A stretch of 32,000 nucleotides of DNA from Ferroglobus placidus DSM 10642 (GTDB lineage: Archaea > Halobacteriota > Archaeoglobi > Archaeoglobales > Archaeoglobaceae): the NCBI RefSeq assembly GCF_000025505.1, contig NC_013849.1:1710001-1742000 (forward strand), written 5' to 3'. How positions within the stretch are numbered: position 1 is the first letter of the stretch; each line of letters opens with the position of its first letter. The position numbers were made by a program, and so were the translations under genes. Positions 4,425-15,126 of the stretch are shown here, piece by piece. The notes under the pieces are model-generated. The model was not told the DNA's origin, did no database searches, and worked only from the letters and a program-made list of their open reading frames with translations.

Positions 4425-5452
4425 GGGGCATTTTAATTTCTTCCGTTGAAGAGAAAGCTGGAAAAACCTCGTTGATTCTCGCTCTAAACGAAATTTTTTC
4501 AGGCTATAAAACCGCTTACTTCAAACCCTTCGGAACGAGTCCGGTTAGAGAGGGAGAATACTTGGTGGACGAGGATTTGAAAGTAGTCGAGGGGAATTTC
4601 AGCAAGAGCTCGAATCCCATCGTCCTTGACATGCCCTACGCCGAGTTCGTTTATTCGAGCGATTCCGTTGAGTTGAAGAAGGCTATAATCGAAGCTTACG
4701 AGGAGCTTGATGCGGATATTGTTTTCGTGGAAGGCTCTTCCGAATACAAGGTTGGAAAGTCCCTCGGCATTAGCGATGATATGGTTGCGGAAATTCTCGA
4801 TTTGAAAGTGTTACTCGTCGCAAAATACTCGAACGACTTCGTGATAGACAGGGTTCTTACGGCGAAGGATGTTTTTAAGGAGAGGTTGCGGAAAGTTTTA
4901 ATCAACCAGCTTACTGGGTACAAAACCTCCTACGTGAGTGCTGTAGTCGGGAAGGTTTTCGCTGAAAACGATCTTAGCGTTGTTGGCGTTTTGCCGAGGG
5001 ACCCCCTTCTCGCGGGAATGTCCGTCGAAGATGTGAGGAGAGCGGTGGAAGGGGAATTTGTTGTTAAGGCTGAGGAAGGGATAATCGAGCATTTCATAAT
5101 CGGTGCGATGTCGAAGAAGTCTGCTGAGAAGTTTTTAGCAGGAAAGGATAACTTGGCAGTAATTACCGGCGGAGACAGAAAAGACATTCAGCTTCTCGCA
5201 TTAGATTACGACAACGTCAGGTGCTTAATTCTCACCGGAAACCTTTATCCGGAGAGGGAAGTGGCAGAGAAAGCGAGAAAGAGAGGAGTTTCGATAATAG
5301 TCGTTCCAGAAGACACTTTAACAACCACCGAGCAGCTTGAGGAAGCTATGAGGAAGGCTAAAATAAGGGGGAAGGAGAAGATAAAGAGAATGGTTGAGCT
5401 CGTTAAAATGCACGTGAACGTTGATGAGATAGATAAATACATTTTCGACTGA
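4421..5452 (+). CDS. DRTGG-domain protein with N-terminal P-loop-like (Pta N-terminal / CobQ-BioD-like) domain
   Basis: 343 aa. N-terminal EEKAGKTS, internal LAVITGGDRKDIQLLAL (DRTGG signature). The ATGA overlap with the fprA stop implies translational coupling. Confidence 0.7.
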   Translation: MRGILISSVEEKAGKTSLILALNEIFSGYKTAYFKPFGTSPVREGEYLVDEDLKVVEGNFSKSSNPIVLDMPYAEFVYSSDSVELKKAIIEAYEELDADIVFVEGSSEYKVGKSLGISDDMVAEILDLKVLLVAKYSNDFVIDRVLTAKDVFKERLRKVLINQLTGYKTSYVSAVVGKVFAENDLSVVGVLPRDPLLAGMSVEDVRRAVEGEFVVKAEEGIIEHFIIGAMSKKSAEKFLAGKDNLAVITGGDRKDIQLLALDYDNVRCLILTGNLYPEREVAEKARKRGVSIIVVPEDTLTTTEQLEEAMRKAKIRGKEKIKRMVELVKMHVNVDEIDKYIFD

Positions 5453-9353: not shown

Positions 9354-10349
9354 TCACCTCAGAGGAGTTTTCGAGATTAGCAATCTGTTGTAGGTCGGAT
9401 ATCTTTCGACGATGTAAACCTCTATTCCCTCCTTCCTGAGCTTTTCGGCATTTTCCTCTGCGAACTCCATACTTACCTCGAATCCTTCATCTGTTTCGAA
9501 GAAATCAATACCCATGGACGTTAATATTTTTCTAATTTTTTCCTTGTCTCCCTCCAAGTATCCGCAGAGAACAGTGCCTTCACTCGTGACCTTGTAAAAC
9601 TCTGGTAAGTTGAAACCCATTCTTATGAGCCTTCTTCTAAATTGAGCAATATCTTTGAATCTCACGCTGCAAAAGTGAAACTTTTTGACTTTTTCAGCGT
9701 ACTTCATAGCTATTTCCTTGCTATTTTTAGCCTCGTAAAACTCCCCTATTTCCCATCCCCTCTTTTCGAGTTCGAGGTAATTTGTCGCCGAAAATTCGAG
9801 CTCGTTAACGTTGAGAAATATATCCTCCTCGTTTACGAGCTTTACTATCTCCTCTTCATACTTTATAGCCGGAATTTCAATGCCGGTCTCAATTCCGTAC
9901 TTTTTCGCAATTCTAACGCTTTCTCTGTAGATTTCGGAGTTTTCGAGATGGGGTGGATGGAATCTGATCTCATCCAAGCCGGCTTCGGCAAGTTTTTTTA
10001 TGACCTCCTCTTTTGCCGGAACGCTCGTGTATAAATGAATGTGCAGGTCGTCAAAAGCTTCTATGACTTCCAGAACGTAGTCGAGCTTTAGCAAAGGCTC
10101 TCCTCCGGTTATCGCTATTCCTTCAGCGCTCATCGCATTTATCTCTTCGGCGATATCTTCCAAGCTTCTCACCGGTCTTTCGTTTGCGTAAACTACATCT
10201 TTTCCCTTTTTCTCCTCGCTTATCGGACAGTAATAACAGCTGCTGCGACATTTTCCCGTGACAAATAGGACGAGTTTCGCTCCTCTCCTGCAGATCTTAC
10301 AGCCTTCGCTTAGGTAGCTGTAAAAACTTCCGGCTTCGATCCTTTTCAT
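9354..10349 (-). CDS. radical SAM protein (uncharacterised, PFL-activase-related group)
   Basis: 331 aa. CRSSCYYC (CxxxCxxC) cluster motif preceded by CKIC; GGEPLL glycine-rich SAM motif. ATGA-type 4-nt overlap with the lysS stop. Confidence 0.8.
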   Translation of the reverse strand: MKRIEAGSFYSYLSEGCKICRRGAKLVLFVTGKCRSSCYYCPISEEKKGKDVVYANERPVRSLEDIAEEINAMSAEGIAITGGEPLLKLDYVLEVIEAFDDLHIHLYTSVPAKEEVIKKLAEAGLDEIRFHPPHLENSEIYRESVRIAKKYGIETGIEIPAIKYEEEIVKLVNEEDIFLNVNELEFSATNYLELEKRGWEIGEFYEAKNSKEIAMKYAEKVKKFHFCSVRFKDIAQFRRRLIRMGFNLPEFYKVTSEGTVLCGYLEGDKEKIRKILTSMGIDFFETDEGFEVSMEFAEENAEKLRKEGIEVYIVERYPTYNRLLISKTPLR

Positions 10350-11821: not shown

Positions 11822-11939
11822 CGAGGAAAAATCTGAAGTAGTTTTAAAAACGTTTCTCGTCCCCACTCACCTCCGATTTTTCTCTCCCTTATTAAGTAGA
11901 CACTTCTGTAAACATCATCGTCGAAAGGCTTATACCTAC

Positions 11940-12191
11940 TTGTTGTATACAACACGGATTGTAGCGGAAACGGAAGTTATAAGCGTGAGAGTACGAAAAG
12001 GAACTAAAAAACTGCTTGAAGAAGTGGGGTTAAACGTGAGCGAAGAGGTAAGGAAATTCCTTGAAGAGCTTGTATGGAAGGTAAAGATAAAGAAAAAACT
12101 GGAAGAGTGGGAAAAAATTCTGGAAAACGTGAAACCTTCGGAAAGCGGATTTGCAGCTACCAGCGTGAGGGAAGATCGTGATAGTCGTTGA
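11940..12191 (+). CDS. vapB: VapB-type (ribbon-helix-helix) antitoxin
   Basis: 83 aa. EVISVRVRKGTKKLLEEVGLNVSEEVRKFLEELV ... SVREDRDSR matches the archaeal VapB pattern I recall (ISVRV beta-strand, SEEVRKFLEE, C-terminal REDRDS). The 3' end overlaps a PIN-like start by 14 nt. The start codon is uncertain: TTG at 11940 or 11943, with no ATG available. Confidence 0.7.
   Translation: MLYTTRIVAETEVISVRVRKGTKKLLEEVGLNVSEEVRKFLEELVWKVKIKKKLEEWEKILENVKPSESGFAATSVREDRDSR
11941..11954. promoter_or_regulatory. 14-bp perfect palindrome TGTTGTATACAACA, candidate VapB operator
   Basis: Read directly from the sequence; it is its own reverse complement. It overlaps the two TTG candidate start codons of vapB and lies downstream of TATA-like CTTATTAA (11888-11895) and GCTTATAC (11928-11935). 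Confidence 0.4.
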
Positions 12192-12255
12192 CTCTTCGCT
12201 GCTGGTTAAATTCTTTTCCAAAGAAGAGGGTTTGAGTGTAAGACTGATAGAATGA
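12178..12255 (+). pseudogene. vapC: vapC (PIN-domain toxin) remnant, only the first 25 codons
   Basis: A GTG at 12178 opens VIVVDSSLLVKFFSKEEGLSVRLIE, then TGA. IVVDSS..L.KFF is the canonical N-terminal PIN strand with the first catalytic Asp. I could not find the rest of a PIN domain in any frame downstream, or beyond the inserted segment. Confidence 0.6.
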
Positions 12256-12276: not shown

Positions 12277-12285
12277 AATTCATCG
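12277..12285. repeat. direct repeat AATTCATCG, left copy (candidate target-site duplication)
   Basis: Identical 9-mer at 14931-14939. It lies 3 nt outside the left inverted-end core. Confidence 0.5.
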
Positions 12286-12679
12286 GGGGTGTCCAACAAT
12301 TTAAGAAGCTCGCACTTCCACCTTAAAGCCAATTTTATACAATAAACTACCTTTCTAGCGAGAATCCTCGTTTCGTTGCTTTTTTCTCTCGATTTCGACC
12401 TCTCGCCGAATTCAACGCTTAGTGCTCCGAAGTTTTTTCGGCTTCCTTCCTCTACGCTTTTCAAATCTTTCATCAATCTTCAACAATGTTAAAATCACAT
12501 GAAGGAATTTGTAAATTAGCTCGATGTCGTAGACGAGAGTATCCACCTCTTGAGCATGAAGAAATTTAATTTAGCAATTGTATTTTGTGATGCCATCTAA
12601 GAAAGTTGTTTTTAGACAGGTCGTCATTATGGTAATTATTAAATACTCCTAGTACTAAACTAGTTATGGGGGAATAAAA

Positions 12680-14557
12680 ATGAGTGATGGTAAGAATCTA
12701 ATTTTAGAAAGTGACAAACTATCCGACGAAAAATGGATTGTAAACTTTATAAAAGCGATGCCTGGGATTATAATTTTTGTGGGGGTAGATGGAAAAATAA
12801 AATTTGCAAATGACAATGCAGCTAGACTTGCTGGATATGACAGTGCAGAACAAATTATTGGGTTAAAACCCAAAGATGTAGCTGTTTTTAGTGAAGAATA
12901 TGCAAATATAGGAAAAAAATTTATAGAAAAAATTAAAAAAGGAGAACCAGTAAAATTAGAGACAAAACTTATTCCGAAAGTTGGCAAGGAGTTCTATGCT
13001 AGGATTGAGGTTAATCCATTTTACTCTAACGGAGAACTTGTAGGATATATTGAGTCATTCTATGATATCACCGAGCTAGTCAAGAAAAACGAATTTATCA
13101 AAAAAATATTCTTTGAGATGCCAGCCCCAGTTTATGCAATGTTCGTTGGTACTGATGGTAGAATTCGCTACGTAAATAATGAACTTGTAAGATTAACAGG
13201 ACTATCAATTGACGAGATTGTTGGAAAAAGAAGTGGAGAAATTATAAAAACACCTACAGGAAAAACACTTGCTGACAAAATTTTAAAGACTCGTAAAAGT
13301 GTTATCAACTTTGAGGGGGTTGTAAACGTAGGTGATACAATTATCCCGGCTTTAGTTTCTTGTGTACCAATATATATGGATGATGAGTTAATGGGTGCTA
13401 TGTATATATTTATAAGTATTAAAAATCTCAAAGAAAAAGAAAAAGAGATTAGAGAAATACTTGAATATATGAGAGAAAACCTTTCGAAGCTCAGTAATGC
13501 TATTAAAGAATTACAATCTGGTAACCTTGACATAAAAATTGAGAAAACTCGCGATGATGAATTCGGAAAAACGTTTGAAGCTTTCAATGAGTTTGTTAAA
13601 AAGTTAAGGGAGATTATTACGGACATTACTGCAGATATGAAAGATGTAAAAGGTGGTGTGCAGGAAATTGAAGAAGCATTATCTCAAATGAGTTCTGGAA
13701 TGGAACAAATTAGCACATCATCTCAACAGATTGCTAACGGTAGTGAAAATCTTTCAAGATTAGCCAACGAATCGATGGCACACCTTAAAAAGACCGAAAA
13801 AATATTCAGCGATTTAGTTCAAGAAGCAGTGGAATATTCTGAAGTTGCTGATGATGCAGCTAAAAATGCTAATAGAGCTGCAGAGTTGGGAGTTGTTGCC
13901 CTTCAGGCAATAGACAAAATAACCGAGGTTATGGAGTCCACTTCACGGGTTGTCGAATCTCTGGAAAAGGCTGTTAGAGATATTGGAAAGGTTACAGACA
14001 AAATTAGAACAATTGCTGATCAGACCAATTTGCTTGCTTTGAATGCTGCTATTGAAGCTGCGAGGGCTGGGGAGCATGGGAGGGGTTTTGCCGTTGTTGC
14101 GGATGAAGTAAGAAAACTTGCTGTAGAAGCCAAAAAGAGCACTGAAGAAATTAATGAAATAGTTACCAAAGTTCAAGAAGAAACTAAAAAAGTTATCGAA
14201 ACTACACAATCGGCGAAGAGTATAAGTTTAGAGAGTAGTAAAAACATTACTGAAGCTTTGAATATGGCTAGATCGATAGCACAATCTGTTAACGAATTAG
14301 CTAAAATGTTTGGAAAGTTATCAGAGGTTGCCCAAGAAGGGCTCAGAAGTCTCGAAGTTCTTACAAAGAATTTCGAAGAAGTTGCATCAACTGCTGAAGA
14401 AAATGCGGCATCTACTGAAGAAACTTCTGCAGCAATAGAAGAACAAACTGCATCGATCCAACAAGTATATAACACGATTTCCAATATTAAAAGTATTGCC
14501 GAAAGTACGTATGTAAAAATGATAGAAACTTTCAAATTTGAGAAAATAGAAAAATAG
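12680..14557 (+). CDS. methyl-accepting chemotaxis protein, soluble, two PAS-like domains + HAMP + MA signalling domain
   Basis: 625 aa. Highly conserved hairpin-tip motif [39 protein letters not shown]-like [39 protein letters not shown]. Two N-terminal PAS-like modules ([16 protein letters not shown]..., [16 protein letters not shown]...). I saw no hydrophobic segment long enough for a TM helix. G+C is far below the flanks. Confidence 0.9.
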
Positions 14558-14600
14558 TTAATGTATTGTATAATATTATAAATATTATAGTTACTCCAAT

Positions 14601-14618
14601 ATTATTTTATTATTTTTT
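14601..14618 (+). terminator. oligo-T tract downstream of the MCP gene (archaeal-type terminator candidate)
   Basis: ATTATTTTATTATTTTTT lies about 45 nt after the stop codon. Archaeal RNAP terminates at T-runs. Confidence 0.35.
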
Positions 14619-14783
14619 AAATTCTTTAGCTTTGTTTTACAAGACACTATATAAATAAATATATAAATAATATTGGCAAAATTCACGTTGACTGAAAAAG
14701 CTTAGGAGTACATTGCTGGAACATAAATATCGGAAAAATTCGCCTTTGATTGCCATAAACTCAACACCGGGGGTGTCCAGAGA

Positions 14784-14926
14784 GTGTCCAAAATTCTCAA
14801 ACTTTTAAGATGATTTCTAACTTCAAACAGATCAAAAATTCATCAAAAACTTGTTTGATCTTGTTTATCCGGAAATCTGATTAGCTTGAATTTTATTGAC
14901 TCCAAAAGCGTTGAATTATTGGACAC
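14784..14926. repeat. 143-bp MITE-like unit with terminal inverted repeats and a central hairpin
   Basis: The ends are GTGTCCAAAATTC (14784-14796) and the reverse complement of 14913-14926, GTGTCCAATAATTC; they are identical apart from one extra T. Similarity continues inward (CAAaCTTTTaaG vs CAAcgCTTTTggaG). Centrally, AAACAGATCAAA (14825-14836) pairs with TTTGATCTTGTTT (14854-14866). Confidence 0.5.
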
Positions 14927-14930
14927 GCTC

Positions 14931-14939
14931 AATTCATCG
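14931..14939. repeat. direct repeat AATTCATCG, right copy (candidate target-site duplication)
   Basis: Identical to 12277-12285. It lies 4 nt outside the right inverted-end core. Confidence 0.5.
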
Positions 14940-14944
14940 CAAAC

Positions 14945-14952
14945 CTTAAATA
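14945..14952 (+). promoter_or_regulatory. TATA-box candidate for rpl40e
   Basis: CTTAAATA is centred about 25 nt upstream of the ATG at 14974, implying a leaderless or very short-leader mRNA. The same TTAAATA core sits in front of trpC. Confidence 0.4.
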
Positions 14953-14973
14953 ACTACCTCCTTAGCCGAATTT

Positions 14974-15126
14974 ATGGCGAGATTTCCAGAGGCTGAAGCG
15001 AGGCTATTCAACGTGAAAATCTGCATGAGGTGCAACGCAAGAAATCCGATGAAAGCGAGAACTTGCAGAAAGTGCGGATACAAAGGTTTGAGACCTAAAG
15101 CCAAAGAAAGAAAGGGTAGGAAGTAA
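14974..15126 (+). CDS. rpl40e: 50S ribosomal protein L40e
   Basis: Not in the ORF track (50 aa): [50 protein letters not shown]. It has the CxxC...CxxC zinc ribbon and the [11 protein letters not shown]-terminus typical of archaeal L40e. Confidence 0.92.

Follow-up and report, generated by a model that had tools for sequence, protein, structure and literature searches.

The genome of the hyperthermophilic archaeon Ferroglobus placidus DSM 10642 carries, between a decaying vapB/vapC pair and the ribosomal protein gene rpl40e, a 2645-bp insert with inverted ends and an intact predicted chemoreceptor gene. The insert occupies positions 12286–14930 of the stretch analysed here, which we call the window (32,000 nucleotides; positions 1,710,001 to 1,742,000 of contig NC_013849.1). 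It is missing from the same site in a sister species, where the sequence that flanks it twice in F. placidus is present once. We consider it probable that the insert is a non-autonomous element of the mobile insertion cassette (MIC) type, which would have moved as one unit through its ends at 12286 and 14930, with an IS5-like DDE transposase acting in trans.

Inverted ends and a flanking direct repeat

The left end of the insert (12286–12301) reads GGGGTGTCCAACAATT, and the reverse complement of its right end (14914–14930) reads GAGCGTGTCCAATAATT. Both contain a 13-nt core, GTGTCCAACAATT and GTGTCCAATAATT, in inverted orientation and identical at 12 of 13 positions. A degenerate version of this core, GTGTCCAAYAATT, has two matches in the 32 kb, namely the two insert ends, even when up to two mismatches are allowed. 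Over a longer comparison (GGGGTGTCCAACAATTTAA versus GAGCGTGTCCAATAATTCAA), the terminal inverted repeats (TIRs) are identical at 15 of 19 positions with a 1-nt offset. Abutting each end is the 9-mer AATTCATCG, which occurs exactly twice in the window (12277–12285 and 14931–14939), the chance expectation for its occurrence anywhere in the window being 0.46. Because the neighbouring bases of the two copies differ (outside A versus C; inside G versus C), the direct repeat is 9 bp long; counting the G at 12285 as part of the element would give a repeat of 8 bp and two tips of 4 nt. A first-pass annotation of this DNA had described inverted 12/13 cores flanked by the same 9-mer and had taken them for a transposable element with TIRs that had duplicated its target site. 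Re-reading the letters returns the cores at the positions it gave and places the 9-mer, without mismatch, at those two sites only, and the proposed element type is supported by an empty site with a matching boundary.

The empty site in Ferroglobus relatives

Looking up a one-residue variant of the Rpl40e protein retrieved ten contigs (L011–L020) from different metagenome samples and metagenome-assembled genomes (MAGs), namely ENA REYS20-1 samples, ERZ27262676, GCA_015522185.1, GCA_015521575.1, GCA_015520115.1 and GCA_027049935.1. All ten are free of the insert. With a slash marking the junction, they read ...CAAATTCATCG/CAAACCTTAAATAAC... or, at greater length, ...gcgacaactcAAATTCATCG/caaaccttaaataactacc..., which corresponds to the F. 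placidus left flank, one 9-mer and the F. placidus right flank. A single copy of the 9-mer is present, as AATTCATCG or as AATCCATCG; to its left, homology of the flank extends over more than 55 nt. The spacing between lysS and rpl40e is 467 bp in these contigs (118 bp in L019) versus 3107 bp in F. placidus, and blastn homology with the window ends at 11866/12228 on the left and restarts exactly at 14931 on the right. Since the left flank is ~87% and the right flank ~78% identical, these contigs represent a different, sister species of Ferroglobus and not a strain of F. placidus. The unoccupied site ...CAAATTCATCGCAAACCTTAAATA... that the first-pass annotation had predicted is exactly what the ten contigs contain; it had also named an empty site lacking the 9-mer as counter-evidence, and the sister sites carry the 9-mer. 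Further away, the Ferroglobus genome GCA_964463865.1 has a lone ACTTCATCGCAATCCTTAAATAAC (ACTTCATCG) beside the rpl40e promoter and no trace of an insert; its alignment with the window shows conservation beginning at the 9-mer, and its lysS and rpl40e lie in separate neighbourhoods.

The occupied and empty sites together show 12286–14930 to be an insertion, which reached the F. placidus lineage once it had parted from the sister species and duplicated 9 bp of its target. It landed, through a staggered cut, in the intergenic DNA that separates the 3′ end of vapC from the promoter of rpl40e. On another reading, the insert would be ancestral, the sister would have lost it by precise deletion between the 9-bp repeats, the empty site would be secondary, and the inverted ends and direct repeat would be silent on the direction of the event. 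Recombination between short direct repeats can leave one copy, and the locus has lost other DNA in both lineages, vapB in the sister and the central part of vapC in F. placidus. Such a loss is highly improbable in our view: the second, more distant Ferroglobus also has a single motif beside rpl40e without any insert trace, the low G+C content at third codon positions (GC3) of the receptor gene, 0.25, argues for recent arrival over long residence, and the original event would remain an insertion that created the duplication.

A foreign chemoreceptor as passenger

The predicted receptor, a methyl-accepting chemotaxis protein (MCP), is recognised by its Pfam domains MCPsignal (1.7e-38), PAS_9 (2.8e-19) and HAMP (1.3e-9). 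Among 5.8 billion protein clusters, its best homologues are 49–53% identical and come from Geoglobus, Archaeoglobus and Archaeoglobaceae MAGs. Most of these proteins are longer, with extra PAS domains; no match in these clusters exceeds 53% identity. A look-up of the exact 625-aa protein in the protein collection gave no match, because the gene is split in public assemblies of F. placidus reads. The breaks lie at ~14044–14071 (the start of L002 and the end of L005), in a conserved signalling motif, and are presumably caused by the presence of this motif in MCP paralogues.

G+C content is 34.3% in the insert as a whole and 44.4% elsewhere in the window. The receptor gene has a GC of 0.349 and a GC3 of 0.254, versus GC3 values of 0.49 for lysS and 0.55 for manC, in line with the single intact low-GC MCP gene of the first-pass annotation. 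Composition and a receptor identity of at most 53% mark the insert as foreign DNA, and we infer a lower-GC donor for the cargo.

The non-coding interior and stray copies of the ends

Outside the receptor gene, the insert gives no family signal. Pfam and NCBIfam searches found no transposase or integrase in it, the whole 32-kb window holds no transposase either, and an Rfam scan of the element returned nothing credible. The leader upstream of the gene has a promoter-like stretch that is rich in A/T, and directly before the ATG stands a GGGGG motif of the ribosome-binding type. Two origins for this DNA were considered and rejected. As the rest of a decayed vapC, an origin by which the left TIR would have belonged to a gene, 12305–12620 shows no PIN signal (Pfam, NCBIfam), and the 3′ end of the sister's vapC lies to the left of the insertion; as PAS domains lost from the MCP, the leader is not supported by tblastn with 46 MCP homologues, which finds nothing upstream of 12680. 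The description of the interior that had been given from the letters alone holds for the intact MCP gene, the AT-rich spacer, the nested mini-element and the lack of a transposase, while 12305–12679, which it had included in frame-broken debris, is not shown to be of coding origin.

At the right extremity lies a 151-bp mini-element, which shares its right end with the insert. Its size and ends are MITE-like (miniature inverted-repeat transposable element), and no target duplication flanks it alone, the 9-mer bracketing only the full 2645 bp. Within it, 14822–14873 contains an imperfect hairpin (CAAACAGATCAAA ... TTTGATCTTGTTT) and a motif, AAATCTGATT, that is also found in the closest metagenomic MITE (L052, see below).

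Parts of the ends recur inside the insert. In the leader, the 12-mer AATTCAACGCTT at 12409–12420, in left-end orientation, equals the inner part of the right end. Next to the mini-element, four of the five bases upstream of the internal tip copy GGGGTGTCCA agree with the last bases of the target repeat. The MCP block is bracketed by a direct repeat of 15 nt, CA(T/C)CGGGGGTGTCCA (12281–12295 and 14765–14779), which covers 5 nt outside the element tip; simple transposition of a unit leaves this repeat unexplained. The adjacent stretch 14700–14769 was considered as a relic copy of the target and discarded, as 211 of 2000 shuffles reach its similarity.

An insertion sequence and MITE family with similar ends

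A strict end pattern, RGSGTGTCCAAYAATTYAAS, scanned in 185,579 species genomes, gave 16 singletons in unrelated bacteria, a number that fits chance, and none in archaea. Although it has two matches in the window, the pattern did not return F. placidus; this genome is therefore absent from the collection, and the negative has no bearing on copy number in the host. On viral contigs, a looser end pattern gave seven singletons, which we take as chance, and a paired-core pattern gave none. This paired-core pattern (GTGTCCAA[N]AATT ... AATTNTTGGACAC, ~118 nt apart) was also run on JGI metagenomes, where it found 15 loci, 12 with archaeal-type elements of ~135 bp, mostly from hot springs, and three from soil. 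The soil loci (L047, L049 and L056) were set aside as a different family with a longer palindrome. The 12 loci with ~135-bp elements correspond to ten distinct copies and two duplicates.

The family has the end consensus GGGC-GTGTCCAA.AATT, the hyphen separating tip from core, and its MITE ends are written GGGCGTGTCCAAAAATT. Two properties lie outside the search pattern and yet agree with the F. placidus element: the 4-nt tips, which are GGGC or GGAC in the metagenomic copies (GGG and GAGC in F. placidus), and target duplications of 9–10 bp, seen in eight of the ten distinct copies (for example TGGTTAGGAT, CAGTGGACCA, TAGAAAAGA and TTAA(C/T)CCTAA). The closest ends are those of L052, on a 35%-GC contig, where GTGTCCAATAATTTAAC is identical to the F. 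placidus right end at 16 of 17 positions. The same contig carries, at 9427–9672, a fragment of the N-terminus of an IS5-type transposase (...LAVDSTGLRED...).

The MITE contigs also hold, at contig breaks, ends of a longer element, GGGGCGTGTCCAAC..., whose open reading frame has ~60 homologues, mostly truncated. A profile search recovered full-length relatives of 256–295 aa, five of which pass Pfam DDE_Tnp_1 with 25–46 bits (cutoff 23). Their best NCBIfam matches are models of the IS5 family of insertion sequences (ISs), with 30–56 bits versus cutoffs of 110–140; the curated IS5 threshold is thus not reached (transpos_IS5_2, 30–56 bits versus a cutoff of 140), and with scores so far below the cutoffs the proteins form a divergent, unnamed group. 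An intact IS of 974 bp is present at L060 1468–2441, with ends GGGCGTGTCCAAAAAAT and ATTTTTGGACACGCCC and a 265-aa predicted transposase. Besides this copy, the loci of the IS/MITE family are L044–L055 and L057 (JGI hot-spring metagenomes) and L059 79–809, and a named host, Ca. Geocrenenecus (Thermoproteota), is available for one member only. Many decayed copies stand at contig ends. In two places (L045 3108–3135 and L055 2011–2038), 18 nt separate a MITE copy from the end (GGGGTGTGTCCAACTATT...) of a longer element that belongs to the family as well, which suggests clustered or nested insertions.

Ends of the GTGTCCAA type belong, to judge by their tips, duplications and predicted proteins, to a real and mobile IS/MITE family with a putative, divergent IS5-like DDE transposase. 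This archaeal family is apparently undescribed; a literature search on IS elements and MITEs of Ferroglobus, on ISFpl names and on the end sequence found nothing relevant. By its end similarity of ~13–17 nt, its tip and the length of its duplication, we infer that the F. placidus element may be a member. Other copies of such ends, whose absence the first-pass annotation had listed as one part of a refutation of its proposal, have turned up as a metagenomic MITE/IS family with the core, a G-rich tip of 3–4 nt and a 9–10-bp duplication.

How the insert may have moved

In the mechanism that we favour, the whole 2645-bp segment would be mobilised as a unit, from its outer left end at 12286 to position 14930, where the embedded MITE-like copy has its right end. 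These two ends would be cut and joined in trans by a DDE transposase from outside the element, a member of the divergent IS5-like group with GGGC-GTGTCCAA.AATT ends and 9–10-bp duplications. The staggered cut that duplicated AATTCATCG would be its work, and the receptor gene would be carried as a passenger with its own upstream leader. Movement as a unit is preferred because the 9-mer brackets the whole unit and not the mini-element alone, and because the left end fits the family consensus over at least 13 nt and so further than the internally repeated 10 nt.

The mini-element, which owns a complete pair of inverted ends (pair I2), allows a different order of events. A MITE of 151–161 bp (14770/14780–14930) could have inserted first and made the 9-bp duplication, and ~2.5 kb of DNA with the MCP gene could have entered later at the left tip of this MITE, by illegitimate recombination or by integration of a circle at the short repeat C(A)YCGGGGGTGTCCA. 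In such a history, the direct repetition of GGGGTGTCCA with four of the five preceding nucleotides (12281–12295 and 14765–14779) would be an att-like or duplication-like trace around the MCP block. However, the left end continues with ACAATT past the shared 10 nt and so completes GTGTCCAA.AATT, which is unexpected at the edge of an arbitrary fragment, and the hypothetical 2.5-kb insert (12296–14769) has neither inverted ends of its own nor an integrase. Moreover, the DNA upstream of 14770 does not resemble the target significantly (211/2000 shuffles), and no relative carries the MITE alone, ten of ten sister contigs being fully empty. We regard this two-step history as unlikely.

Several end-like motifs cluster at both extremities of the insert, and these could also be remains of a compound transposon, in which two MITE or IS copies once flanked the MCP gene and the left one decayed to its outer end (12286–~12420). 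The outermost two ends would then have been used for movement, as in classical composite transposons. The 12-mer AATTCAACGCTT, part of the inner right end, does lie 123 nt inside the left end, but its orientation is wrong for the inner end of a left copy and the 13 nt upstream of it match at 4/13. Local alignment of 12286–12680 with the mini-element likewise finds only the 10-nt tip and the 12-mer. A compound ancestry seems quite improbable to us; it overlaps with movement of the unit in trans and differs from it only in prehistory.

Several observations weigh against the mechanism that we favour. The insert ends are just 15/19 identical, with tips of unequal length (GGG versus GAGC), and the extra left-type ends (GGGGTGTCCA at 14770 and AATTCAACGCTT at 12409) point to a history more complex than that of a single clean element. 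The IS5-like link consists of ~13–17 nt of end similarity and the duplication length, and 12 nt of the core were imposed by the search; similarity between the interiors of the mini-element and the L052 MITE is borderline, being reached by 51 of 1000 shuffles. Transposase-bearing copies come from hot-spring, Thermoproteota-like metagenomes and none from Archaeoglobi, and no second copy of the ends and no cognate transposase turned up in F. placidus, which is absent from the genome collection, or in any of the Archaeoglobi, the strict end pattern giving only chance singletons.

Comparison with known mobile elements

As defined in ISfinder/ISsaga, MICs are passenger genes bounded by TIRs that lack a transposase, and a cognate IS is expected to move them in trans (PMC3129680); MIC231 of Bacillus cereus, for instance, is mobilised by the IS231A transposase (references in PMC2266710). 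The F. placidus insert resembles them in having TIRs, a passenger gene unrelated to transposition (the 625-aa MCP, its sole gene), a flanking direct repeat and no transposase. The 15/19 ends supply the TIRs, and the 9-bp AATTCATCG on both sides, with the empty site in the sister species, supplies the direct repeat and the evidence of insertion. Three of the four defining features of a MIC are thereby present, the fourth being a cognate IS in the same genome. The insert differs from described MICs in its archaeal host, its chemoreceptor cargo and a right arm that is a complete MITE-like unit. Its ends are also of the IS5-like GTGTCCAA type and not of the IS4/IS231 type, IS4-family ends starting with CA/CT (PMC2266710, Table 1).

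With the IS5 family, the insert may share a G-rich tip followed by a conserved core and a duplication in the 8–10-bp range, and the metagenomic relative of ~974 bp and ~265 aa shows D...D...E spacing (DST ... GDGAFD ... GERIFG). Within the IS5 family, the IS903 group has GGC ends and a 9-bp duplication. The differences are that the F. placidus element has no transposase and that the metagenomic transposases score below the NCBIfam IS5 cutoffs. Archaeal MITEs form a second point of comparison: Redder et al. are said to have described the Sulfolobus MITEs SM1–SM4 in 2001, reportedly mobilised by ISC elements. Like them, the mini-element of 151 bp and the metagenomic elements of ~135 bp are short, non-coding and TIR-bounded, the metagenomic ones with target duplications, whereas the inserted unit of 2645 bp with a 1.9-kb gene is beyond the definition of a MITE, which covers non-coding elements of less than ~0.5 kb.

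A composite transposon also has cargo between element ends and moves by its outermost ends, but the insert contains no IS copy and no transposase, its left side being a solo end and its right side a MITE; the left 395 bp and the mini-element have only 10 + 12 nt in common. An integrative element is disfavoured because inverted ends and a short duplication fit transposition; there is no integrase, and no tRNA at the site.

Neighbouring genes and features of the locus

To the left of the insert lie lysS (minus strand, ending at 11866), whose lysyl-tRNA synthetase is 100% identical to the F. placidus protein, and the vapB/vapC pair; to the right lies rpl40e (14974–15126), whose product is identical to ADC66128.1. 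VapB groups with WP_211204320.1, in a cluster that bears the name VapB family antitoxin (F. placidus). F. placidus has an intact vapB, and an internal deletion in its vapC joins ...FSKEE to GLSVRLIE*; the sister (L011 7680–7935) has lost most of vapB and keeps a longer vapC that is frame-broken and decayed. The vapC 3′ end, GGTTTGAG...CAAATTCATCG, is homologous in both. The pair is decaying independently in the two lineages, and the vapC truncation is therefore not due to the insertion, which lies ~30 nt downstream of the vapC stop.

The insertion point is a few nucleotides upstream of the rpl40e promoter block, A(A/C)TTCATCGCAA.CCTTAAATAAC, which is conserved in all relatives examined. The idea that the right end is ancestral promoter-proximal DNA was rejected, since the alignment with the more distant Ferroglobus shows no conservation before the 9-mer. 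In the MAG of this more distant Ferroglobus (L001), the region upstream of rpl40e carries different genes, so that the lysS–rpl40e junction is a synteny breakpoint within the genus; it also holds, at 5320–5419, a 100-nt intron-containing tRNA (Rfam, 57.9 bits) that ARAGORN missed. The features of the locus are collected in Table 1.

Table 1. Features of the insert and its flanks, in window coordinates.
Feature	Position	Strand	Evidence or remark
vapB antitoxin, left neighbour outside the element	11985..12191	+	NCBIfam TA_anti_VapB_Sulfo, 62 bits, E 5e-17
vapC remnant, N-terminus joined to C-terminus	12178..12255	+	Alignment with sister L011, where the vapC middle is kept
Target-site duplication, left copy AATTCATCG	12277..12285	.	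Single in the empty sites of L011–L020
Left TIR, GGG-GTGTCCAACAATTTAA	12286..12304	+	Repeat pair I5; fits GGGC-GTGTCCAA.AATT
Leader of the insert, 375 bp, non-coding	12305..12679	.	No Pfam/NCBIfam match in any frame
Passenger gene, intact predicted cytoplasmic chemoreceptor, 625 aa, PAS-PAS-HAMP-MCPsignal	12680..14557	+	
AT-rich spacer, 24% G+C	14558..14769	.	Local inverted repeat 14596–14676, pair I3
Truncated copy of the left-end tip, GGGGTGTCCA, direct orientation, unexplained relic	14770..14779	+	Repeat D14, CATCGGGGGTGTCCA / CACCGGGGGTGTCCA
MITE-like mini-element, 151 bp, ends GAGA-GTGTCCAAAATTC ... GAATTATTGGACAC-GCTC	14780..14930	.	Pair I2
Right TIR, reverse complement GAGC-GTGTCCAATAATTCAA	14912..14930	-	
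Target-site duplication, right copy AATTCATCG	14931..14939	.	Homology with relatives restarts here
rpl40e promoter TTAAATAA (14945–14952) and gene (14974–15126)	14940..15126	+	Conserved in all relatives

Implications

While elements that carry passengers and lack a transposase have been well characterised in Bacillus, few are documented from archaea, and the F. placidus case is an archaeal example. The first-pass annotation had called a transposon-like vehicle with a receptor as cargo unusual in archaea; this is fair for archaea and overstated for the kind of element, which is known from bacteria as MICs and passenger-carrying IS derivatives (PMC3129680). The principle that a DDE transposase acts in trans on TIR-bounded DNA is already established, and the locus adds no wider mechanistic novelty. 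What it offers is a clean case of a signalling gene acquired horizontally by apparent transposition in a hyperthermophilic archaeon, in which occupied and empty sites, the duplicated target and inverted ends can all be seen. The uncatalogued IS/MITE family with its divergent IS5-like transposase is a candidate addition to IS annotation resources, and two defined ends with a defined target provide a substrate for archaeal transposition assays.

We further speculate, as a tentative idea that for now we rather doubt, that the unnamed IS5-like family (GGGC-GTGTCCAA ends, 9–10-bp duplications) is spread over at least two archaeal phyla and moves sensory genes in Archaeoglobi, and that the F. placidus copy is still mobilisable. 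If so, a resident or visiting transposase would mobilise this copy in trans, and transposase-less cargo cassettes would reshuffle chemoreceptor repertoires between hyperthermophilic archaeal species.

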